Origin: a virus
Lineage: Duplodnaviria; Heunggongvirae; Uroviricota; Caudoviricetes
IMG/VR virus record: IMGVR_UViG_2541047804_000005
Strand: one strand, 5' to 3'
DNA length: 36,214 nt
Shown here piece after piece: positions 17,068-36,214 of this stretch; position 1 is the first letter of the stretch; each line of letters begins with the position of its first letter. Under the pieces are notes generated by a model. The model did not search any database. It had not been told where the DNA came from and saw only the letters and a program-made list of their open reading frames with translations. The translations under genes were made by a program, and so were the position numbers.

Positions 17068-17338
17068 GATGTTACCGTAGTATGTGAGTATCCATCGAAT
17101 AGATACCAAGCAAAAAAGCTCCCGAAGGAGCCTTCATTTTCACTTTTTTAAATCCAACGACAGACGGCTGGCATTTAAGTATTGTGAAATATTATCAAAT
17201 GTAATCATCATTGATTTACAAAAGATACATTTTGCCCCGAAAGGATTCATGTCAGAAACATCAAAAGATGATGTTCTATACTGGGAACCATGACAACACG
17301 GGCATCTAAAGTGAATATGGTTTGTAATATTGTCTACC

Positions 17339-17551
17339 TCAAAGCGCCACTACATGAACAGCGGCAGGACCTTTAGGTCCGTTCTCAATACCAAATTCAA
17401 CTTCCTGATTCTCAGTTAATGTTTTGAAATCGTTGCTCTGAATTGCTGAGAAATGGACAAACACATCTTTGCTGCCATCTTTCGGCGTGATGAAACCAAA
17501 ACCTTTTTCAGGGTTAAACCATTTCACTAAACCAGTCATTTTGTTAGACAT
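17339..17551 (-). CDS. cspI: Cold shock protein, CspA family (CspI-like)
   Basis: 70-aa ORF with the cold-shock domain signature KWFN.EKGFGFI and VFVHFSAI (RNP1/RNP2 motifs); a long AT-rich upstream leader region follows on the minus strand. Confidence 0.8.
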
Positions 17552-17914
17552 AATTATTACCTTTTGAAGAAATTAGCCCTTGGGCAGAATGGTCCGAAAA
17601 AAAATATCAGAGAGAAAAACCAACAAGGAAATCTCAAGAGGTACAAATAATAAAATTATAACAATGACTGCTTCAGATAAATTTGTAACAAACCAGAACA
17701 CCATTAACGCATGATTAACCACCCATAGCAAGGATTACTTTTGTAAAGAAAAACACAGCAATGAAAGAATAGCTTTATTTATTAATAATAACGTGTCATT
17801 CTGATTAAGACCTTTTATCTTACCCTTAAGATTTCAGGAATTTTGGCTCATGGAAGAGTCCTTTTTATTTAAATTTTACATTCCGCGATGTAAATGTTCC
17901 GATTTAATATTACC

Positions 17915-23967: not shown

Positions 23968-24246
23968 TTACCTCCAGATCCGTTGCTGGAAAGTGCGGGA
24001 CGCACGTGGTGGGCGTTCGGAATAAGGCAGCCTGACAGAGATTATCCAGTGCCGATAGTCGAGACTGAGAGCTTTCTTAACCTCGAACCCGCGCCTGCGG
24101 TAAGAATGAATCAGCCATTCGGCCTGTTCTGCAGTGCATGGAGGGTGCTGGAACCATTCAGACTTGAATGCGTGAGAATACCGCCCGTGCGTGCAGGCAA
24201 GAACGGGCGAATTATCAGAATTGTAATATTTTACGTTGCGTGCCAT
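23968..24246 (-). CDS. Hypothetical prophage protein (92 aa)
   Basis: ORF upstream of the DUF968 gene, overlapping its start; no family recognised. Confidence 0.35.
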   Translation of the reverse strand: MARNVKYYNSDNSPVLACTHGRYSHAFKSEWFQHPPCTAEQAEWLIHSYRRRGFEVKKALSLDYRHWIISVRLPYSERPPRASRTFQQRIWR

Positions 24247-24312
24247 CGGTTTTCTCCGGTGGCACGGTGTTACTCAGCGGGAGTTCAGCCCCGCGCAAGA
24301 TTGTAGATGAGT

Positions 24313-24564
24313 TTATTCTTCTGCAAAAGCAGAAAAGCCAGCTTTTATTCCGATCTCTTTCAATGCCTGTAATGAAGTGACAAACTCACCTTCGCGCAAG
24401 ATAAATCCGTCCGTGACCCGAGCATCCACAAAATTAATTAACGCAGCCCCATTCTTTCGCAAACACATAATGCGGTAATGACTAACAAGATTTCCATTTT
24501 CAACGCACACAGCATAGAGGCCATCTTCACAAAAAATTTTACGCAGTTCTTCGATGTTCATCAT
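24313..24564 (-). CDS. Hypothetical prophage protein (83 aa), possibly Rem-like by position
   Basis: ORF between hok and the DUF968 gene, where Qin carries rem (83 aa); sequence not independently recognised. Confidence 0.35.
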   Translation of the reverse strand: MMNIEELRKIFCEDGLYAVCVENGNLVSHYRIMCLRKNGAALINFVDARVTDGFILREGEFVTSLQALKEIGIKAGFSAFAEE

Positions 24565-24680
24565 CAGAATCCTTCCGGATAATTAGCTCTCCCCTTTAAG
24601 GGACCATCCCTCTTATCCCTGCGCGCTACTTAAGTATTTTTGATTCTATTCCGGCACCGTCCAGATCTTCAAACGCGTTG

Positions 24681-24710
24681 AAAATAAAAACAAAAACCCG
24701 CCGAAGCGGG
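24681..24710 (-). terminator. Rho-independent terminator of hok mRNA
   Basis: CCCGC-TTCG-GCGGG hairpin (plus 24697-24710) followed on the minus strand by TTTTTGTTTTTATTTT, about 70 nt after the hok stop. Confidence 0.6.
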
Positions 24711-24780
24711 TTAAGTGCGGGTGCGTTGAGGATGCCTGCCACATCAGAGGTGGCGAGGGATTTCTCCCTCGCCGGGTCTC

Positions 24781-24936
24781 TTACTCCTCAGGTTCGTAAG
24801 CTGTGAAGACAGCGACCTCCGTCTGGCCGGTTCGGATTCGTACCTCGCAGAGGTCTTTCCTCGTTACCAGTGCCGTCACTATGACGGTTAAACAGATGAC
24901 GATCAGGGCGATTAACATCGCCTTTTGCTGCTTCAT
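24781..24936 (-). CDS. hokD: Hok-family type I toxin (HokD/RelF-like)
   Basis: 51-aa ORF MKQQKAMLIALIVICLTVIVTALVTRKDLCEVRIRTGQTEVAVFTAYEPEE: single transmembrane helix plus the conserved Hok C-terminal Cys region. Confidence 0.85.
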   Translation of the reverse strand: MKQQKAMLIALIVICLTVIVTALVTRKDLCEVRIRTGQTEVAVFTAYEPEE

Positions 24937-24993
24937 AGCCTGCTTCTCCTTGCCTTTCGGCTCGTAAGAGGCTAACCTACATGTGTCTAGCAT
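24781..24993 (-). CDS. Mok-like reading frame (in-frame N-terminal extension of hok)
   Basis: ATG at 24991-24993 opens a 70-aa frame (MLDTCRLASYEPKGKEKQA-MKQQK...) that runs into hok, resembling MokC-type arrangement. Confidence 0.5.
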   Translation of the reverse strand: MLDTCRLASYEPKGKEKQAMKQQKAMLIALIVICLTVIVTALVTRKDLCEVRIRTGQTEVAVFTAYEPEE

Positions 24994-25610: not shown

Positions 25611-27398
25611 ATGGACGATATTAATATCAGCCTCGACGAACTTAACACTATTGATTTATCCCCCTTAATCCAGAGTAAGCTGCCAGTTACCTGCTTTGAT
25701 ATCACAAAGTATCTTTCTAGCCTAGGTGATGGAAGAGCGGAGATAAGACTGCTAACCCATATTTGCGGTTTTCACTTTCGTCCCGAAAATCCACAGGTAC
25801 CATTTGGTCCGTGCTTTCAAAGCAGCCAAGGTAGATCTGCAATTCCGGATGACATTAACGGGTTGTCGCTGGAGGTACTTTCTCAATTTTGCCCGACGAT
25901 AGAGCTACCCGAACTTCAAGCTCGTATTGCTGATACACTTTGGGTTCGTAAAATTGGTGGAATCCGTTTTCCTTTGCTGGCAGTCCGTGCTTATTATGCG
26001 TCCAGTATAGCTATTATGACATCGCAAGGGACGTGGGTTAGTGCTTTAGAACGCCTAGAGCGTGCGCTTAGGCTGTGTTGTTTTTTTCGAAAGAATACTG
26101 ATTTCAGGGATGAATTTGATCAGCTTTCGGCACATCTACTAGCAGAGTATGAACGTACCAGAGAACAAGGCGATTCACCTTATCCGCTGCGACTCCTGCA
26201 ACTCGATATCGACTGTAAAGTGAGTGAGCCATCTTTTATTGCCCAGGAACTCCTGTTTCTGACAAAAAACTATCTGGCTCAAAAATTATTTTCATTTGCC
26301 GTCGATGCCTGTAAAACCGCAATCACGATTGCGAATAGGTGCTGTGACAGAGATACACAGTTTGAATTCTGGCGGCTTCTTGCCGATACACATCTGGAAG
26401 AGTCAAAATTCCAAGATGGCGGTATGATTTCGGCAGCCTGCATGCAGAATGCTATTGAAGCACTGGCTAATATTCCAGGAACCCGAATAGAACGTCTTGC
26501 GCTGTATGAAGAAATGCGTGATTACCAAATCGAATCCCGTCACCAGATGTCTATCCTTCAGTCTCCCCCTCAAGATATTAGTGAGATTGTCCATCAAGCC
26601 AAGAGTCGGGTAGTCGGAAGAGATATGTTTGATATGGTTTTCAGACTTGCGATGCTGGTCTGTCGGCCAACCAGCATTGAGAGACTTAAGGCTCAAGCAA
26701 TAGAACAAAAGGCCAACAGCATAGCTTGGATGTTTGGATCAACACATATTGATCATGAGGGAATGACACTTGCTCGCATACCCGCAGGATTGGGGATTGA
26801 TGATGCAAATGGGGCAGTTATTTGGCCCATAATGATGACGAGAATGCGTATCGACCATGAGTTGGCAGTAGCTGGGCAAATTATTCCTGCTACAGATGAG
26901 ATCACAATGAAATATCCAATCTCGGAGGCGTTTTTTCGCGATATGTTCATCAATCATCCCTTCATCCCGTTTGGGCATGAAGAGTTTTTCATCAAGGGTA
27001 TGGTTTGCGGTTTCAATGGAGATTTTATGACGGCATGCCACGTGTTGATTCCCCAGATCGAAAATAGTCTGAGATATGTGGCTAAAATTAAAGGTGAGGA
27101 ACCATCGCAGCTTCACGGGGACGGTTCGCAAGAGCGAAATGGACTCAAGGGATTACTAGATAATCCACTGATTATTGAAGCTTTCGGCGTAGACATAATT
27201 GGCAATCTTCAGGCCTTACTGGTAGATAAAATCTATGGTGATTTACGAAATCAACTAGCTCACGGATATGTGCCTGCCGGTTACTACAATCAACCTCCCT
27301 GCATTTTTGCATGGTGGCTTGTATTGCACATTCTAATGAACCCTACGGCGAGATACTGGCAAGCCACTTATGGCCAAGAGAGTGAGGCTCAGACTTAA
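25611..27398 (+). CDS. Orphan 595-aa protein with C-terminal HEPN-like Rx4HxY motif; candidate abortive-infection or defence RNase
   Basis: Long uninterrupted ORF with AGGTGA ribosome binding site, opposite in orientation to both neighbours, lower GC than the flanking phage genes. C-terminal LRNQLAHGY (R546...H551.Y553) fits the HEPN Rx4-6H / HepT Rx4HxY catalytic signature. No N-terminal domain recognised. Confidence 0.6.
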   Translation: MDDINISLDELNTIDLSPLIQSKLPVTCFDITKYLSSLGDGRAEIRLLTHICGFHFRPENPQVPFGPCFQSSQGRSAIPDDINGLSLEVLSQFCPTIELPELQARIADTLWVRKIGGIRFPLLAVRAYYASSIAIMTSQGTWVSALERLERALRLCCFFRKNTDFRDEFDQLSAHLLAEYERTREQGDSPYPLRLLQLDIDCKVSEPSFIAQELLFLTKNYLAQKLFSFAVDACKTAITIANRCCDRDTQFEFWRLLADTHLEESKFQDGGMISAACMQNAIEALANIPGTRIERLALYEEMRDYQIESRHQMSILQSPPQDISEIVHQAKSRVVGRDMFDMVFRLAMLVCRPTSIERLKAQAIEQKANSIAWMFGSTHIDHEGMTLARIPAGLGIDDANGAVIWPIMMTRMRIDHELAVAGQIIPATDEITMKYPISEAFFRDMFINHPFIPFGHEEFFIKGMVCGFNGDFMTACHVLIPQIENSLRYVAKIKGEEPSQLHGDGSQERNGLKGLLDNPLIIEAFGVDIIGNLQALLVDKIYGDLRNQLAHGYVPAGYYNQPPCIFAWWLVLHILMNPTARYWQATYGQESEAQT

Positions 27399-29024: not shown

Positions 29025-29526
29025 AATTCCATCCAGCTTTTTGTTGGTATTGCTGTCGATACGCAAGTTTGAAAGCAATTGCTTTTTCTATAAGTTCGTC
29101 AGTTTCACGATCCACTACGGCAGGATCAGCAAAAAGCAGTCCGGACTCCACCACATCGCCATATTCTTTGTTTAACCCGGCGATCATGTACGTGATGCTT
29201 TTTCCGTCACTAATTTCACGATACAACCTGAAATCATTAATCCGGATAGCCTCCATAATTGCAGGCACTAGCGCCGTGAACTTTTCACGCTTATCCCTGG
29301 TGTCGATAGCCTTCCAGCGTTCGAATATCTTCACTCGATTAACGCCAAGCGCTCGCTGATCAACCGCGCCACCTTCATCTGTGACACGCTGAACATCGAT
29401 GTTCGGGCGCTCTTTCAAAGCCCAGAATGCTTCAGTGATTAATATCGTCGCCTGCTCCTGTGTCATTCCTGGTCGACATATCCAGGCATCCAGAGCCTCA
29501 CGAGCCTGTTCAGGAGTGATTTTCAT
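29005..29526 (-). CDS. Hypothetical early protein between the Cro-like gene and the replication initiator (173 aa)
   Basis: ORF in the position of cII/YdaT-type genes; no motif recognised with confidence. Confidence 0.4.
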   Translation of the reverse strand: MKITPEQAREALDAWICRPGMTQEQATILITEAFWALKERPNIDVQRVTDEGGAVDQRALGVNRVKIFERWKAIDTRDKREKFTALVPAIMEAIRINDFRLYREISDGKSITYMIAGLNKEYGDVVESGLLFADPAVVDRETDELIEKAIAFKLAYRQQYQQKAGWNYEPSFC

Positions 29527-29737
29527 TGTTCAACCGCCCCGCCCGCTTCGTCTTACGATATTCGTCATAAACCTTGGGATCATACAGAAGCTCGCCGCCA
29601 GATGCCTCCTGTAGACGCATCGCGCGACCTTCAGGAACCAGCTCTTGCCATTGAGAAACAGCAGATGGGTCAACGCCAGCAGCTTTCGCTACTTTGGCTT
29701 TCGTACCGTAAAAATTAATTACGTCTGATTTAAACAT
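29510..29737 (-). CDS. dicC: Cro-like regulator, DicC-like
   Basis: 75 aa from ATG 29735-29737 (MFKSDVINFYGTKAKVAKAAGVDPSAVSQW...YDPKVYDEYRK...NENHS) with GGAGGT ribosome binding site; divergent from the repressor gene. Confidence 0.7.
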   Translation of the reverse strand: MFKSDVINFYGTKAKVAKAAGVDPSAVSQWQELVPEGRAMRLQEASGGELLYDPKVYDEYRKTKRAGRLNNENHS

Positions 29738-29750
29738 CGCACCTCCAGTA

Positions 29751-29764
29751 TTGAGTTTTCTCAA
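29751..29764. promoter_or_regulatory. Candidate operator in the dicC-dicA intergenic region
   Basis: TTGAG-TTTT-CTCAA inverted half-sites, with further CTCAAG half-site-like repeats at 29774-29797, in the 77-bp divergent promoter region. Confidence 0.45.
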
Positions 29765-29814
29765 TGCTAATCACTCAAGGAATCTCAAGTCAAGGGTTAT
29801 TAAGATATCTAAAT

Positions 29815-30222
29815 ATGAACGAGAAAACTTTAGGTCAACGCATTAGAGAAAGACGTAAGCAGGTAGGTTTAAGTCAAAACGGTTTAAGCAAAGCTGCTGG
29901 CGTATCTGGCTCATCAATTTCATTATGGGAAAGTGACCATACAGCCCCGCGCGGGCAAAATTTGCATCGCCTCGCCGAGGTATTGCAATGTTCACCAACC
30001 TGGATACTGTTTGGCGACGAGGACAAAACACCAGCTCCCCCTGTTTCACTCGATAGTGCCTTAGACTTATCGGAAGATGAGTTAGAGATGCTGCGTTTGT
30101 ATCGCGCACTTCCTAAATCAGAGCAACAAGCACAACTCAGCGAACTCCGCGCCCGCGTTGAGAATTTTAATCGCCTGTTCACCGAGCTATTAGAGGCTCG
30201 CAAACGCAACAAGCATCAATAA
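29815..30222 (+). CDS. dicA: Prophage repressor, DicA-like (HTH-XRE, no peptidase domain)
   Basis: 135 aa from ATG 29815; HTH LGQRIRERRKQVGLSQNGLSKAAGVSGSSISLWE and conserved LQCSPTWILFGDEDK; closely resembles DicA as remembered. Confidence 0.8.
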   Translation: MNEKTLGQRIRERRKQVGLSQNGLSKAAGVSGSSISLWESDHTAPRGQNLHRLAEVLQCSPTWILFGDEDKTPAPPVSLDSALDLSEDELEMLRLYRALPKSEQQAQLSELRARVENFNRLFTELLEARKRNKHQ

Positions 30223-30286
30223 TCATCCCTTCACAAAATTTTAAAGCCTTACATTTCAATGTATTGGCTTTATCTTGCGCCAATAC

Positions 30287-30338
30287 TTGAGTTTTCTCAT
30301 CAAAAAGCCTTGACGAAAAATAATGAGAAAACTAAATT
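30287..30338 (+). promoter_or_regulatory. Candidate dicB-operon promoter flanked by inverted operator copies
   Basis: TTGACG (30310-30315)-N17-TAAATT (30333-30338); TTGAGTTTTCTCA at 30287-30299 and its reverse complement TGAGAAAACT at 30324-30333 bracket the -35 element. Confidence 0.45.
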
Positions 30339-30414
30339 ACCTCCATCAACACACCGCACGGTGTTCTCAGCAAACAGTTCCGCTACCCCGGCGTTAAGGG
30401 GAAATGAGGTCAGC

Positions 30415-30570
30415 ATGGATACTATCGATCTTGGCAACAACGAATCTCTGGTGTACGGCGTGTTTCCAAACCAGGACGGCACGTTCACCGCAATGACGTA
30501 TACCAAAAGCAAAACGTTTAAAACCGAAAATGGTGCCCGTCGCTGGCTGGAAAGAAACTCAGGTGAGTGA
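30415..30570 (+). CDS. ydfA: YdfA-like small protein (51 aa)
   Basis: ATG 30415 with GAGGT upstream; MDTIDLGNNESLVYGVFPNQDGTFTAMTYTKSKTFKTENGARRWLERNSGE; first gene after the repressor as in Qin. Confidence 0.55.
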   Translation: MDTIDLGNNESLVYGVFPNQDGTFTAMTYTKSKTFKTENGARRWLERNSGE

Positions 30571-30571
30571 T

Positions 30572-31147
30572 ATGGATTTCGACACAATCATGGAAAAGGC
30601 TTACGAAGAATACTTCGAAGGCCTTGCCGAAGGCGAAGAAGCTCTCAGCTTCAGTGAGTTTAAACAGGCACTCAGAATAAGAATGCGCTCTCACAATGAC
30701 GCGGAGCACAAATATGAGAAGCAAAATCAGACCGCAGAAAATTTTGTTCTGGAACCCGGAGAAACGCTTTTCAAAATTCCCGTTACGTGCCCCATTTGCG
30801 GTTTTACATCAGAAGAACTTGACGACTCCTGTAACAATCAGGAAACAACCAAGTATGTCGAAGATGATACCGAGTGCGCACGAAGAACGATTATATCCAC
30901 GAGTCCAAACTCCAGGACCAATAAATCTCACTTTGAGAGGGTGATTAATCCACTCCCCCAAACCAATAAAAAAGATGCCGGAGGACAAAAAAACCAATGG
31001 AACAACGGGATATCTGTCAAAAAAAGACGTTCCATTAAAGACAAACAACGCAGCGCCAACAACTGTAAGCGCTTTATACCAGTAATCAATTTTCATGTTC
31101 TTAAGCGGATTTATTGGTGGTTGCGACATTGCTTAATGAATCCTTAA
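30572..31147 (+). CDS. Hypothetical protein in the ydfB/ydfC position (191 aa, zinc-ribbon CPICGF, basic low-complexity C-terminus)
   Basis: ATG 30572 two nt after the ydfA stop; the C-terminal half is unusually basic and overlaps an alternative-frame ORF (30696-30944), so the true gene structure is uncertain. Confidence 0.35.
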   Translation: MDFDTIMEKAYEEYFEGLAEGEEALSFSEFKQALRIRMRSHNDAEHKYEKQNQTAENFVLEPGETLFKIPVTCPICGFTSEELDDSCNNQETTKYVEDDTECARRTIISTSPNSRTNKSHFERVINPLPQTNKKDAGGQKNQWNNGISVKKRRSIKDKQRSANNCKRFIPVINFHVLKRIYWWLRHCLMNP

Positions 31148-31406
31148 AACTGTGGTGATTTTAAGGATACCACCTCGCCTGACGTGGTTAAAAGCAGGCA
31201 CACAACACGAAAGCGCACGGCGAAGTTCGTCTCACTGTACGGTGTCGTCAAATTTAATTCGACCGTGCGCTTCCGGTTGTGGCAACCCGCGAAATGGCGC
31301 GGCGGTAAGTATGGCGGGGTTATTCCTTCCCCGTTGAGGACACCGAGTTGTCAGGTTGACCATACGCTTAAGCGACAACCCCGCTGCAACGCCCTCTGTT
31401 ATCAAT

Positions 31407-31459
31407 TTTCTGGTGACGTTTGGCGGTATCAGTTTTACTCCGTGACTGCTCTGCCGCCG
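31407..31459 (+). ncRNA. dicF: DicF small RNA
   Basis: TTTCTGGTGACGTTTGGCGGTATCAGTTTTACTCCGTGACTGCTCTGCCGCC followed by GTTTTT matches DicF as remembered, including the GGCGG...CCGCC terminator stem; located just upstream of dicB. Confidence 0.75.
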
Positions 31460-31633
31460 TTTTTAAAGTGAATTTTGTGATGCGGTGAATGCGGCTAAGC
31501 GCACGCGGAACAGTTAAAACCAAAAACAGTGTTATGGGTGGATTCTCTGTATCCGGCGTTAATTGTTAACTGGTTAACGTCACCTGGAGGCACCAGGCAC
31601 TGCATCACAAAATTCATTGTTGAGGACGCGATA

Positions 31634-31822
31634 ATGAAAACGTTATTACCAAACGTTAATACGTCTGAAGGTTGTTTTGAAATTGGTGTCACTATCAGTA
31701 ACCCTGTATTTACTGAAGATGCCATTAACAAGAGAAAACAAGAACGGGAGCTATTAAATAAAATATGCATTGTTTCAATGCTGGCTCGTTTACGTCTGAT
31801 GCCAAAAGGATGTGCACAATGA
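31634..31822 (+). CDS. dicB: Cell division inhibitor DicB
   Basis: 62-aa ORF MKTLLPNVNTSEGCFEIGVTISNPVFTEDAINKRKQERELLNKICIVSMLARLRLMPKGCAQ, matching DicB as remembered. Confidence 0.8.
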   Translation: MKTLLPNVNTSEGCFEIGVTISNPVFTEDAINKRKQERELLNKICIVSMLARLRLMPKGCAQ

Positions 31823-32010
31823 ATTCAGCATTTGCGCTTGTTCTGACAGTTTTTCTTGTTTCCGGAGAGCCAGTTGATATTGCAGTCAGTGTTCACAGGA
31901 CAATGCAGGAGTGTATGACTGCAGCAACCGAACAGAAAATTCCCGGTAACTGTTACCCGGTCGATAAAGTTATTCACCAGTATAATATCGAAATCCCGGC
32001 AGGTCTTTAA
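31819..32010 (+). CDS. ydfD: YdfD-like small membrane protein
   Basis: 63-aa ORF from ATG 31819, overlapping the dicB stop (ATGA); N-terminal hydrophobic segment FALVLTVFLV. Confidence 0.55.
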   Translation: MNSAFALVLTVFLVSGEPVDIAVSVHRTMQECMTAATEQKIPGNCYPVDKVIHQYNIEIPAGL

Positions 32011-32103
32011 AACAGTTCCGTAATAAATATCCGGTTTCATTCTTATATGCCAGCAATGGCAGGGATTTGTTCATCCTTAAATCTGTCATGAGGTTAAAAC
32101 AAA

Positions 32104-34575
32104 ATGAGTAAAGTCTTTATTTGCGCCGCTATTCCTGACGAACTGGCAACAAGGGAAGAAGGCGCTGTGGCTGTAGCCACAGCCATTGAAGCTGGCGACG
32201 AACGCCGTGCTCGAGCAAAATTTCACTGGCAATTCCTGGAACATTATCCGGCTGCTCAGGACTGCGCTTATAAATTTATTGTCTGCGAGGATAAACCTGG
32301 CATACCCCGCCCTGCCCTCGATTCATGGGATGCTGAATATATGCAGGAAAACCGCTGGGATGAGGAGTCTGCTTCTTTTGTCCCGGTTGAGACTGAATCC
32401 GATCCGATGAACGTCACTTTTGACAAGCTGGCCCCTGAAGTACAGAACGCTGTCATGGTTAAGTTCGACACATGTGAAAACATCACCGTTGATATGGTTA
32501 TTAGCGCACAGGAATTGTTGCAGGAAGACATGGCAACATTCGACGGACATATCGTTGAAGCGTTGATGAAAATGCCAGAAGTTAACGCCATGTATCCGGA
32601 GCTTAAGTTGCACGCCATTGGGTGGGTTAAGCATAAATGTATTCCTGGTGCTAAATGGCCCGAAATTCAGGCAGAGATGCGCATCTGGAAAAAACGTCGC
32701 GAAGGTGAACGCAAGGAAACCGGAAAATACACGTCTGTTGTTGATCTCGCCCGCGCCAGAGCCAATCAACAGTACACTGAAAATTCAACAGGAAAAATCA
32801 GCCCGGTCATTGCTGCCATTCATCGCGAATACAAGCAGACATGGAAAACACTGGATGACGAACTGGCCTACGCTCTCTGGCCTGGTGATGTGGATGCCGG
32901 AAACATTGACGGCAGCATCCATCGCTGGGCAAAAAATGAAGTTATCGATAACGACCGCGAAGACTGGAAGCGTATCTCGGCATCAATGCGCAAACAGCCT
33001 GATGCCCTTCGCTACGACCGCCAAACTATTTTTGGCCTTGTCCGTGAACGTCCGATCGACATTCACAAAGATCCCGTAGCACTGAACAAATATATCTGCG
33101 AATACCTGACGACAAAGGGCGTGTTTGAGAATGAAGAAACAGACCTGGGCACTGTTGATGTTCTCCAGTCATCAGAAACACAAACTGATGCAGTGGAAAC
33201 TGAGGTATCTGATATCCCAAAAAATGAAACCGCGCCGGAAGCTGAACCATCTGTAGAGCGTGAGGGGCCGTTCTATTTCCTCTTCGCAGATAAGGACGGA
33301 GAAAAATACGGTCGCGCAAACAAACTTTCTGGTCTGGATAAGGCACTGGCTGCTGGCGCCACTGAAATCACAAAAGAAGAATATTTTGCCCGAAAAAATG
33401 GCACATACACGGGCTTACCGCAAAATGTAGATACCGCTGAAGATTCAGAACAACCAGAGCCGATAAAAGTTACCGCTGACGAAGTAAACAAAATTATGCA
33501 GGCAGCCAATATCATCCAGCCTGACGCCGATAAGTTGCTTGCTGCATCACGTGGTGAATTTGTTGAAGGGATTAGTGACCCGAATGATCCGAAATGGGTT
33601 AAGGGGATCCAGACCCGCGATTCTGTGAACCAGAACCAGCATGAATCGGAACGGAACTACCAAAAAGCGGAACAAAACAGCCCAAATGCGTTACAAAACG
33701 AGCCAGAAACGAAACAGCCTGAATCAGTGGCGCAACAGGAAGTGGAAAAAGTCTGCACCGCCTGCGGTCAGACCGGCGGCGGCAACTGCCCTGATTGTGG
33801 CGCGGTAATGGGCGACGCAACATACCAGGAAACATTCGATGAAGAGTATCAGGTTGAAGTTCAGGAAGATGATCCGGAGAAAATGGAAGGCGCTGAACAT
33901 CCACACAAGGAGAACACTGGCGGCAATCAGCATCACGATAGCGATAATGAAACTGGCGAGACGGCAGATCACTCAATTAAGGTGAACGGTCATCACGAAA
34001 TCACATCCACCAGCAGGACGTGTGACCATCTAATGATCGACCTTGAAACCATGGGAAAAAATCCTGATGCCCCGATCATCTCAATAGGTGCAATATTTTT
34101 CGATCCGCAAACCGGAGATATGGGACCGGAATTTATTAAGACTATCGATCTGGAAACTGCTGGCGGAGTCATTGATCGGGACACCATTAAATGGTGGTTT
34201 AAGCAATCACGCGAAGCGCAATCTGCCATTATGACCGATGAAATCCCGTTAGATGATGCACTGTTACAATTGCGGGAATTTATCGACGAAAACTCCGGTG
34301 AATTTTTTGTTCAGGTCTGGGGAAATGGAGCCAACTTCGACAACACGATTTTGCGCCGTTCATACGAACGGCAGGGGATCCCCTGCCCGTGGCGTTACTA
34401 CAACGATCGCGATGTACGCACAATCGTTGAGCTGGGGAAAGCCATAGACTTCGATGCCAGAACGGCTATTCAATTCGAAGGTGAGCGCCATAATGCACTT
34501 GATGACGCCCGTTACCAGGCAAAATACGTTTCAGTTATCTGGCAAAAACTGATCCCGAGTCAGGCTGATTCTTAA
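32104..34575 (+). CDS. Large early protein with C-terminal DEDDh 3'-5' exonuclease domain
   Basis: 823-aa ORF with GAGG ribosome binding site; C-terminal region has DnaQ-like motifs (MIDLETMG; WGNGANFDNTIL; HNALDDARY), preceded by an acidic linker and a CTACG...CPDCG zinc ribbon; sits next to xis-int. Confidence 0.6.
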   Translation: MSKVFICAAIPDELATREEGAVAVATAIEAGDERRARAKFHWQFLEHYPAAQDCAYKFIVCEDKPGIPRPALDSWDAEYMQENRWDEESASFVPVETESDPMNVTFDKLAPEVQNAVMVKFDTCENITVDMVISAQELLQEDMATFDGHIVEALMKMPEVNAMYPELKLHAIGWVKHKCIPGAKWPEIQAEMRIWKKRREGERKETGKYTSVVDLARARANQQYTENSTGKISPVIAAIHREYKQTWKTLDDELAYALWPGDVDAGNIDGSIHRWAKNEVIDNDREDWKRISASMRKQPDALRYDRQTIFGLVRERPIDIHKDPVALNKYICEYLTTKGVFENEETDLGTVDVLQSSETQTDAVETEVSDIPKNETAPEAEPSVEREGPFYFLFADKDGEKYGRANKLSGLDKALAAGATEITKEEYFARKNGTYTGLPQNVDTAEDSEQPEPIKVTADEVNKIMQAANIIQPDADKLLAASRGEFVEGISDPNDPKWVKGIQTRDSVNQNQHESERNYQKAEQNSPNALQNEPETKQPESVAQQEVEKVCTACGQTGGGNCPDCGAVMGDATYQETFDEEYQVEVQEDDPEKMEGAEHPHKENTGGNQHHDSDNETGETADHSIKVNGHHEITSTSRTCDHLMIDLETMGKNPDAPIISIGAIFFDPQTGDMGPEFIKTIDLETAGGVIDRDTIKWWFKQSREAQSAIMTDEIPLDDALLQLREFIDENSGEFFVQVWGNGANFDNTILRRSYERQGIPCPWRYYNDRDVRTIVELGKAIDFDARTAIQFEGERHNALDDARYQAKYVSVIWQKLIPSQADS

Positions 34576-34918: not shown

Positions 34919-36214
34919 ATGAGAGAAGTTGAAATGAAATATCCGACAGGCGTGGAAAACCATGGAGGGAAATTACGTATCTGGTTTGTTTATAAAGGCG
35001 TAAGAGTCAGGGAAAACCTGGGGGTTCCTGACACAGCAAAAAACAGGCGCGTTGCAGGTGAGCTACGCGCCTCTGTTTGTTACGCAATAAAAACTGGTGT
35101 TTTCGACTATGCAAAACAGTTTCCCTCCTCACGCAATCTGGAAAAATTTGGTGAGGCCCGACAAGATTTAACCATAAAAGAACTGGCTGAAAAATTTCTG
35201 GCACTGAAAGAAACTGAAGTCGCAAAAACATCACTCAACACATACCGTGCCGTCATCAAAAATATCCTGAGCATAATCGGTGAAAAAAATCTTGCCTCAT
35301 CGATTAATAAAGAAAAATTACTGGAGGTTCGTAAAGAGCTACTGACTGGATACCAGATCCCCAAAAGTAACTATATTGTTACACAACCAGGGAGATCGGC
35401 TGTAACTGTAAATAATTACATGACAAATCTTAACGCCGTGTTCCAGTTTGGTGTTGATAACGGTTACCTGGTAGATAACCCGTTTAAGGGGATCTCGCCA
35501 TTAAAGGAATCAAGAACCATTCCGGATCCTCTTTCGCGGGAGGAATTCATCCGTCTTATCGATGCGTGCAGAAATCAGCAAGCCAAAAATTTATGGTGTG
35601 TTTCTGTTTATACTGGCGTTCGCCCTGGTGAGCTGTGTGCACTTGGATGGGAGGACATAGATCTGAAAAATGGAACAATGATGATCAGGAGAAATTTAGC
35701 AAAAGACCGTTTCACGGTACCAAAAACACAGGCGGGAACCAATCGGGTCATTCATCTTATTAAGCCAGCAATCGACGCTCTCCGGAGTCAGATGACATTA
35801 ACGAGACTGAGCAAAGAGCATATCATTGATGTTCACCTCAGAGAGTATGGCAGAACAGAAAAACAAAAATGCACCTTTGTTTTTCAACCTGAAGTGTCAG
35901 CGAGAGTAAAAAATTATGGTGACCATTTTACCGTTGACTCAATAAGGCAGATGTGGGACGCAGCGATAAAACGTGCCGGACTCCGCCATCGAAAATCATA
36001 TCAGTCGAGACATACTTATGCCTGCTGGTCGCTGACAGCTGGTGCTAACCCGGCATTTATAGCAAACCAGATGGGCCATGCAGATGCGCAAATGGTATTT
36101 CAGGTATACGGAAAATGGATGTCTGAAAACAATAATGCACAGGTAGCTTTGTTAAATACACAGTTAAGCGAGTTTGCCCCAACCATGCCCCATAACGAAG
36201 CAATGAAAAATTAA
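34919..36214 (+). CDS. Tyrosine site-specific integrase
   Basis: 431-aa ORF ending at the window edge; N-terminal arm-binding-like region, C-terminal catalytic region with conserved Arg in YTGVRPGE and an HTYA box. Start could be the Met at 34934. Confidence 0.85.
   Translation: MREVEMKYPTGVENHGGKLRIWFVYKGVRVRENLGVPDTAKNRRVAGELRASVCYAIKTGVFDYAKQFPSSRNLEKFGEARQDLTIKELAEKFLALKETEVAKTSLNTYRAVIKNILSIIGEKNLASSINKEKLLEVRKELLTGYQIPKSNYIVTQPGRSAVTVNNYMTNLNAVFQFGVDNGYLVDNPFKGISPLKESRTIPDPLSREEFIRLIDACRNQQAKNLWCVSVYTGVRPGELCALGWEDIDLKNGTMMIRRNLAKDRFTVPKTQAGTNRVIHLIKPAIDALRSQMTLTRLSKEHIIDVHLREYGRTEKQKCTFVFQPEVSARVKNYGDHFTVDSIRQMWDAAIKRAGLRHRKSYQSRHTYACWSLTAGANPAFIANQMGHADAQMVFQVYGKWMSENNNAQVALLNTQLSEFAPTMPHNEAMKN

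Follow-up and report, generated by a model that had tools for sequence, protein, structure and literature searches.

In the window analysed here, a stretch of phage DNA of 36,214 bp, one short sequence recurs on both sides of a repressor gene, and the question this locus raises is which protein, if any, reads it. A sequence-only reading had taken the motif for a DicA-type operator serving both the divergent early promoters between dicC and dicA and the promoter of the operon that carries ydfA, DicF and dicB. The window is a lambdoid prophage of E. coli located at the K-12 Qin site beside rspB. Homology, Rfam and RefSeq annotation, assessed gene by gene, bore out the names given to dicA, dicC, ydfA, DicF and dicB. 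The genes that matter for the question are the following.

24313-24564, minus strand: rem, homolog of the Qin antirepressor gene (98% identical to K-12 Rem)
29510-29737, minus strand: dicC homolog, a Cro-type regulator of 75 aa (Pfam P22_Cro, E 3e-16; 70% identical to K-12 DicC, E 8e-41)
29815-30222, plus strand: dicA homolog, a 135-aa repressor (Pfam HTH_3, E 2e-15; 57% identical to K-12 DicA, E 3e-52)
30415-30570, plus strand: ydfA, first gene of the dicB operon (Pfam DUF1391, E 2e-28; RefSeq annotation)
31408-31459, plus strand: DicF small RNA (Rfam RF00039, 72.5 bits against a gathering score of 48)
31634-31822, plus strand: dicB, cell-division inhibitor (RefSeq annotation of an identical locus; ORF)

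Over its first 22 kb the window matches the lambda-like structural genes found in live phages, so the prophage is probably intact, in contrast to Qin of K-12, a decayed remnant. Its immunity region recurs at 100% identity in many E. coli chromosomes, and of 5426 complete E. coli genomes 767 (~14%) contain at least 80% of a 1.3-kb query drawn from around it. The RefSeq order in strain 118UI runs from ydfU, rem, hokD, a DUF4209 gene, replication genes, a YdaT-family gene and a Cro/CI regulator to an HTH protein divergent from that regulator, followed by ydfA, dicB, ydfD, an exonuclease gene, xis, int and rspB. The immunity module is also 99.2-99.5% identical in the free temperate phages mEp460_ev081 and HannyBb, and the dicA, dicC, dicB, dicF and rem homologs of mEp460_ev081 were already noted by Ragunathan et al. 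(PMC10448788).

The dicA homolog opens with a P22 C2-type helix-turn-helix, its first 72 residues aligning with the structures 1adr and 2r1j (E 8e-16). Because this alignment begins at residue 1 of the 135-aa form, we placed the start codon at 29815 rather than 29764; a 152-aa repressor starting from the ATG at 29764 was rejected. Pfam found only Cro/C1-type helix-turn-helix domains in the protein and no peptidase (S24) domain of the self-cleaving kind, for which a length of 135 aa also leaves it short. Classed by sequence, it is a repressor of the DicA sub-type, not of the CI/C2 sub-type. In its partner, the dicC homolog, the C-terminal 44 residues differ from K-12 DicC by one substitution (L51/Q52), and the N-terminal part that binds DNA has diverged. 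The features that mark a Qin-type region are present: a 135-aa DicA-like repressor together with a P22-Cro-like DicC, both with conserved C-terminal parts (the motifs QCSPTW..FGDEDK and ALP.SEQ are invariant); a left promoter followed on one strand by ydfA, DicF, dicB and ydfD; and a Rem antirepressor gene on the same element.

The 13-mer TTGAGTTTTCTCA, reported earlier between dicC and dicA and again 3' of dicA, occurs in exact form at 29751-29763 and at 30287-30299 (sequence read and pattern search). The site claimed at 29751-29764 is thus present, with the 13-mer itself ending at 29763; base 29764 is an A that completes a perfect 14-bp palindrome, TTGAGTTTTCTCAA, at 29751-29764, built from the half-sites TTGAG and CTCAA around TTTT. 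The inverted copy TGAGAAAACT was found where it had been described, at 30324-30333, and belongs to a longer minus-strand copy with one mismatch, TTTAGTTTTCTCA (30324-30336); TTGACG at 30310-30315 does lie between the two downstream copies. Beyond these two exact copies and the single-mismatch copy, all within 600 bp, the mismatch-tolerant search for the 13-mer also returned 29820-29832 on the minus strand, with three mismatches. At up to three mismatches the 36,214-bp window holds 19 matches against 12.7 expected, which is not significant alone, and this uninformative scan was replaced by the copies with 0-1 mismatch and by a 9-mer core, AGTTTTCTC. The core occurs four times in 36,214 bp, always between 29754 and 30333 (within 580 bp), against 0.36 copies expected, and 0 of 100 shuffles gave four. 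The sequence-only reading had proposed a motif scan of the whole prophage; such a scan added one more copy of the core, the fourth, on the minus strand at 29821-29829, and none distant from the immunity region. Outside 29751-30336, no site anywhere in the window (rem, the late genes and int included) has fewer than three mismatches to the 14-mer. The repetition of the motif is real and non-random.

Upstream of dicA and over its first codons, the motif copies and the promoter that they accompany are arranged as follows.

29751-29764, no strand: OR1, counterpart of K-12 Oc, the perfect palindrome
29764-29793, minus strand: predicted dicC promoter (PR analog), -35 TTGACT at 29793-29788, 18-bp spacer, -10 TAGCAT at 29769-29764 (consensus scan)
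29775-29788, no strand: OR2, weak candidate, counterpart of K-12 Om, TCAAGGAATCTCAA (half-site scan, 2 mismatches)
29800-29813, no strand: OR3, positional equivalent of K-12 Oa, TTAAGATATCTAAA (half-site scan, 2 mismatches)
29819-29832, minus strand: extra copy inside dicA codons 2-6, TAAAGTTTTCTCGT (exact 9-mer core; 4 half-site mismatches)

The spacer between dicC and dicA is 77 bp long and contains one perfect and two weaker sites, with a further weak copy just inside dicA; the half-site scan used TTGAG-N4-CTCAA with up to 2 mismatches. OR1 and the dicC -10 meet at the last base of the hexamer, abutting or overlapping, and the expected start of dicC transcription lies within OR1. In a sub-lineage this -10 reads TACTAT in place of TAGCAT, two substitutions that retain the critical A2 and T6. 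OR3 lies directly before the dicA ATG. The three sites follow one another at 24 bp (OR1 to OR2) and 25 bp; in K-12 both steps, from Oc to Om and from Om to Oa, measure 25 bp. Divergent repressor and cro-type genes, a short spacer, several candidate operator copies overlapping a promoter and a repressor with a Cro/C1-type helix-turn-helix (Pfam HTH_3; P22 C2 structures) are together the makeup of a lambdoid regulatory region. OR2 and OR3, as weaker half-site matches, had escaped the earlier reading, and the match at 29775-29788 could be due to chance. The extra copy had likewise been missed; its core at 29821-29829 falls within dicA codons 3-5, and it may be either a weak operator or a remnant.

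Downstream of dicA there are two further sites and a second promoter.

30287-30300, no strand: OL2, predicted distal left operator, TTGAGTTTTCTCAT (sequence read and pattern search)
30310-30338, plus strand: predicted dicBp (PL analog), -35 TTGACG at 30310-30315, 17-bp spacer, -10 TAAATT at 30333-30338 (promoter scan)
30323-30336, no strand: OL1, predicted proximal left operator, ATGAGAAAACTAAA (sequence read and pattern search)

OL2 starts 23 bp before the dicBp -35 and ends 10 bp before it; counted from the sequences, the starting distance is 23 bp in K-12 and 24 bp in another immunity type, type 3. OL1, which starts 13 bp past the beginning of the -35 (12 bp in both K-12 and type 3), takes up the spacer and reaches into the -10 hexamer TAAATT, an overlap that had gone unnoticed. 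A consensus scan of 29500-30600 returned exactly two sigma-70-like promoters, both of them consensus matches only (9/12 bases each), and the motif sites overlap these two. As in other lambdoid regions, the motif is reused at a second early promoter across the repressor gene. The positions fit the repression of dicCp- and dicBp-type promoters that the sequence-only reading had predicted, since they are the same places that the K-12 Qin operators appear to occupy. Folding gave a hairpin at 30256-30290 (z = -3.5) that ends inside OL2; a reading of it as the dicA terminator was dropped because the hairpin, which overlaps OL2, is not conserved in a sub-lineage. A terminator scan found none after dicA, and the leader 3' of dicBp folds no better than shuffles (z = 0.3).

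All of these sites fall inside one block that differs from K-12.

29639-30343 (705 bp), no strand: immunity cassette, non-homologous to K-12 Qin (blastn of the window against K-12)

Around it, blastn matched K-12 Qin at 98-99% identity over 24001-24950, 29247-29638, 30344-30672, 31190-32870 and 35055-36214. Within it, the only similarity to K-12 is a 66-bp patch of 82% identity inside dicA. In the cassette lie the DNA-binding half of dicC, dicA and the two operator regions, right and left, the latter with dicBp, so that it encloses both DNA-binding regions and every motif copy, and nothing else. Its right edge lies ~5-7 bp past the dicBp -10; alignment identity resumes at ~30344-30345, and from 30344 on, leader and ydfA match K-12 at 99.4% identity. 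By this alignment, the 705-bp block is a classical immunity-region substitution.

At the operator places, K-12 Qin has dissimilar sequence on the same plan, with sites of the form TTAG-N6-CTAA within about 1 bp of the window's positions (we took the K-12 operator names from PMC3441716 and PMC10448788). Oc, TTGTTAGTCATAACTAACAA, adjoins the dicC -10; TTAGCATTAGCTAA stands just before the dicA ATG; and at K-12 dicBp (TTGACC-17-TAATCT, at the same place as the predicted dicBp), TTAGCTATAGCATA precedes the -35 TTGACC and TTAGTCATGGCTAA overlaps the -10 TAATCT. DicA binds Oc in vivo, and a single base change abolishes the binding; Om and Oa were unbound by DicA in the same assay (Yun et al., PMC3441716). 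Oc overlaps the mapped K-12 dicC promoter, whose start was mapped with the same layout (PMC3441716). DicA represses both dicCp and dicBp (PMC3441716, PMC10448788), and dicBp is the sole promoter feeding DicF (Ragunathan et al., PMC10448788). Reg-Seq recovered the DicA site at dicC and listed the dicB site as of unknown location/low-evidence (PMC7567609). Because Om and Oa were unbound in that K-12 assay, the weaker intergenic sites here may not bind the repressor, and because the DicA site at K-12 dicBp is poorly located, the comparison of the downstream pair is one between sequences.

The likeness to K-12 Qin extends from the location beside rspB and the order rem, hokD, dicC divergent from dicA, ydfA, dicF, dicB and ydfD to the 135-aa repressor free of a cleavage domain with its P22-Cro-type partner, the three intergenic sites at ~25-bp spacing, the two dicBp sites flanking the -35 and overlapping the -10, and the near-identity of the flanking DNA and of Rem. 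The differences lie in the operator (TTGAG-N4-CTCAA here, TTAG-N6-CTAA there), in the recognition helices of both proteins, in a DicA that is only 57% identical, and in the extra core copy inside the first dicA codons, which lacks a K-12 counterpart.

Whether the motif follows the repressor can be read from other cassettes. Immunity types were collected via the conserved YdfA protein; in front of one and the same leader they have several different repressor cassettes. In each of the five types that precede this ydfA leader, both loci bear a palindrome peculiar to that type. Four kinds of 135-aa DicA-type repressor were compared in detail; the best palindromic 14-mers of the intergenic region, their distances before the repressor ATG and the recognition helices are these.

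This window: Oc-type site (OR1) 65 bp and Oa-type site (OR3) 16 bp before the ATG; TTGAG...CTCAA; helix SGSSISLWE
K-12: Oc-type site 67 bp and Oa-type site 17 bp before the ATG; TTAG...CTAA; helix SHVSVSQWE
Type 3: Oc-type site 66 bp and Oa-type site 17 bp before the ATG; TTAG...CTAA; helix AHVTISQWE
Type 6: Oc-type site 67 bp and Oa-type site 16 bp before the ATG; TTAG...CTAA; helix AHVTISQWE

The fifth type, K-12b (L152), shares its recognition helix with K-12, has TTAG-type sites and was covered by the cross-comparison. At dicBp, every type has two copies, one ~23-24 bp ahead of the -35 and the other 12-13 bp past its start. Across the immunity types, then, the motif changes together with the recognition helix of the repressor. 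Against its own dicBp the Oc pattern of the window shows 1 and 2 mismatches, versus 3-4 against the dicBp of the other types, and the reverse holds likewise; the 3-4 cross-type mismatches look like background, on a comparison uncalibrated by shuffles. The immunity region contains no TTAG-N6-CTAA, that is, no site of the TTGTTAGTCATAACTAACAA type, and together with the cross-type mismatches this argues for a heteroimmune member rather than the K-12 immunity type. On these sequences the repressor is a heteroimmune relative with a different predicted specificity, not K-12 DicA.

We next considered conservation within this immunity type. A viral-contig search with the DicA alignment gave near-identical relatives only and served this test, not that of co-variation. 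It supplied 80 loci with repressors 96-100% identical, 77 of which were tallied; with the window they amount to 53 distinct sequences of 29700-30420. Counting as common any variant whose minor allele occurs in at least three distinct sequences, common variants affect 0 of the 56 columns of the four core copies and 41 of the 227 columns in the rest of the intergenic sequence (Fisher p = 7.7e-5). OR1 is near-invariant, two of the 77 loci carrying one single-base change each, and its flanks vary (CCAATA-TTGAGTTTTCTCAA-TGCTAA versus the same site between CCAAAG and TAGTAA). OL1 is constant except in three related loci, and the 8 bp upstream of it differ completely between sub-lineages (GAAAAATA-ATGAGAAAACTAAA-TTACC versus the same site between CAACATTC and TTACCA). 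OL2 shows rare variants only (77 related loci). The TTGAC and TAAATT of dicBp are retained in nearly all 77 loci, with four exceptions, and the spacer varies.

Because the motif co-varies with the recognition helix, is conserved within the type and is enclosed, with all its sites, by the cassette boundaries, we consider it very probable that it is the operator of the prophage's own immunity repressor, a heteroimmune DicA relative with a P22 C2-type helix-turn-helix. The sites most likely form the two operator sets, right (PR-type) and left (PL-type), of a heteroimmune DicA/DicC switch, and the Cro-like DicC homolog probably uses the same sites. The central TTTT also counts against this explanation: it is asymmetric yet identical in all four core copies, which a simple two-fold model does not require.

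It is improbable that the sites serve mainly or only the Cro-like DicC homolog, with the DicA homolog recognising something else. Operators are common to both proteins in lambdoid switches. P22 C2-type domains read two-fold sites of 14-18 bp, and the DicA homolog's domain, being of this kind, would be suited to the motif. The N-terminal DNA-binding part of DicC also lies in the swapped cassette and also differs between immunity types (helix-turn-helix DPSAVSQW here versus RLASLYSW and KLASVAAW), and since it varies in parallel, co-variation cannot separate DicC from the DicA homolog. In the prophage CP-933P, moreover, YdaS and PaaR2 footprint overlapping regions (PMC8630535). The evidence from K-12 points the other way, as DicA binds Oc, which holds the equivalent position there, and represses both promoters (PMC3441716, PMC10448788).

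Still less likely is that the repeats belong to promoter or terminator structure, as an UP-like A/T-tract or the U-tract of a dicA terminator, or that they are sites for H-NS/Cnu, Fis or IHF. The hairpin at 30256-30290 does end inside OL2, whose T-run could act as a terminator tail, and Cnu/H-NS affect DicA binding in K-12 (PMC3441716). However, the hairpin is lost in a sub-lineage that keeps the 14-mer, the same palindrome stands at the dicC promoter, where no terminator is expected, and a host factor needs no motif that differs per immunity type or changes with the helix of the phage repressor. That the copies are chance matches or functionless leftovers of neutral local duplication is scarcely credible: although the count at up to three mismatches does not exceed expectation and the two weakest candidates near the dicA start, 29775-29788 and 29819-29832, could each be chance, the 9-mer core is in excess over every shuffle, the sites are conserved against variable flanks, and their positions agree with four other immunity types within 1-2 bp.

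If the motif is the operator of the prophage's own repressor, repressor dimers would bind 14-bp two-fold sites with the consensus TTGAG-TTTT-CTCAA. A dimer on OR1 would block the dicC promoter and keep Cro-type, lytic transcription off, and OL2 and OL1 would silence the left operon of ydfA, DicF, dicB, ydfD, the exonuclease gene, xis and int. The weaker sites (29775-29788, 29800-29813 and 29819-29832) lie where the repressor gene must start and could serve the DicC homolog, or repressor in excess, in turning dicA off. In K-12, DicA is without a RecA cleavage site (Ala-Gly), and the Qin protein Rem is an antirepressor that relieves DicA repression (PMC10448788). As the repressor here has no self-cleavage domain and the Rem homolog is 98% identical, induction should follow the Qin route, via the Rem antirepressor or a DicA/DicC bistable switch. 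We infer binding, repression, cooperativity and the mode of induction from the sequence together with the K-12 experiments.

The operator is absent from the searchable literature, a full-text search giving unrelated primer matches only. The novelty is confined to the operator sequence and its mapping for this type, together with comparative support for the positions of DicA-type sites at dicBp. This defines an operator sequence and a promoter layout for an immunity type present in ~14% of complete E. coli genomes and in at least two free temperate phages, and it predicts that the repressor keeps DicF and DicB, two factors with effects on cell division and phage resistance, silent. The cross-type comparison would also locate the DicA sites at K-12 dicBp, whose location a 2020 survey listed as unknown (PMC7567609). 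Otherwise the locus is a textbook immunity-cassette swap; the motif finding is correct but ordinary and raises no new question.

We regard it as possible, though doubtful, that the operator set departs from the K-12 plan in two ways, through an autoregulatory copy inside dicA and a Rem that acts independently of immunity type. The first way starts from the asymmetric TTTT that all four core copies share and from the copy in dicA codons 2-6. No Shine-Dalgarno sequence precedes the dicA ATG in any of the immunity types, and if the dicA mRNA is leaderless, the copy inside the gene may give a distinct autoregulatory step that has no K-12 counterpart. Because Rem is 98% identical while the repressors are 57% identical and have different operators, Rem may target a conserved linker or C-terminal part. 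If true, one antirepressor could induce heteroimmune Qin-like prophages across immunity types.

The region also resembles other known systems in part. As in CP-933P of E. coli O157:H7 (PaaR2/YdaS/YdaT), where the repressor gene holds the cI/dicA position opposite a ydaS-ydaT type pair, repeated palindromes stand in the intergenic region and at a PL-like promoter, and a YdaT-family gene follows the cro-type gene here too. Unlike here, the CP-933P repressor belongs to another family with another motif (GTTTAGTAA repeats) and has a toxin-antitoxin pair 3' of it. With P22 C2 the repressor shares a homologous N-terminal domain, and with P22 and the OR-OL of lambda CI-Cro the region shares divergent repressor and cro genes and what appears to be one operator reused at the right and left early promoters, overlapping -10/-35 elements. 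Unlike in lambda and P22, only two left operators are visible, the C-terminal part of the repressor is short, of the DicA type, and neither an S24 peptidase nor a RecA-cleavage domain is present, so induction cannot follow the lambda/P22 route. The OR3 sequence resembles TTAAG, which we take to be the half-site of the P22 operator.

In every immunity type, the ATG of the repressor gene (the dicA homolog) lacks an upstream Shine-Dalgarno sequence, as judged from 29798-29815 in the window and the equivalent stretch of L002, L119 and L110. The hexamer TAAGAT (29801-29806) could act as a -10 element, which would place the mRNA start at or near the dicA ATG. Together, these features suggest that the repressor mRNA is leaderless, for which lambda cI and paaR2 are precedents (PMC8630535). 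In the record of HannyBb, a free phage with the window's immunity module, the repressor is annotated with an upstream ATG as a protein of 152 aa (window equivalent 29764-30222), whose start would fall within the perfect operator. This longer form is probably an annotation artefact, since the first residue of the 135-aa form is where the P22 C2 alignment begins.

At the distal left operator, the predicted repressor site before the dicBp -35, folding against shuffles identified an inverted repeat, TCAATGTATTGGC...GCCAATACTTGA (30256-30290, z = -3.5), with its 3' arm covering the operator's first four bases. The T-run of this operator could also serve as the tail of the dicA terminator. The repeat is not retained in a sub-lineage of the window's immunity type (e.g., L145).

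In the dicB operon, the 5' leader (30344-30414) is near-identical between K-12 and all DicA-type immunity types. It includes a perfect hairpin, ACACCGCACGGTGT, at 30351-30364, and its 3' part, GTTCCGCCACCCGGCGTTAAGGGG, is common to Rac-like loci; the leader as a whole folds no better than shuffles (z = 0.3). Two additional cassettes were found upstream of the same ydfA leader in the viral contigs L108/L112 and L116. Their repressors, one of 162 aa and one of 136 aa, are both otherwise unrelated, and each cassette has its own palindrome, which recurs between the divergent genes and at the left promoter (CTAC-N5-GTAG for one cassette, repeats of the CTATAGTTTT/CAATAG type for the other).

The Rem homolog (24313-24564, - strand) is 98% identical to K-12 Rem, whereas its expected target, the repressor (29815-30222, + strand), shares only 57% identity with K-12 DicA and has a predicted operator that differs from that of K-12. 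Rem may act on a conserved portion of the repressor, either the linker or the C-terminal part, in which case it may be active across immunity types.

Other prophage cargo included the following features:

17312-17697, - strand, full-length Rfam match, RF01766 (cspA thermoregulator leader), 113 bits
20208-20600, - strand, full-length Rfam match, RF01766 (cspA thermoregulator leader), 159 bits
24931-25105, - strand, antisense RNA sok from the hokD cassette (Rfam, 116 bits)
about 25611-27398, + strand, DUF4209 gene adjoining the hokD/sok cassette (annotation comparison with K-12 Qin)

The two RF01766 matches indicate that the prophage carries two putative cold-shock-type genes. At the position of the DUF4209 gene, K-12 Qin instead has relBE, ydfV and flxA.

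Genome contigs L004, L006, L013 and L017, from metagenome-assembled genomes that carry the labels Collinsella, Veillonella, Nanosynbacter and Bacillota, also include several fragments of E. coli prophage whose sequence is identical to Qin-type DNA, most likely through binning contamination.
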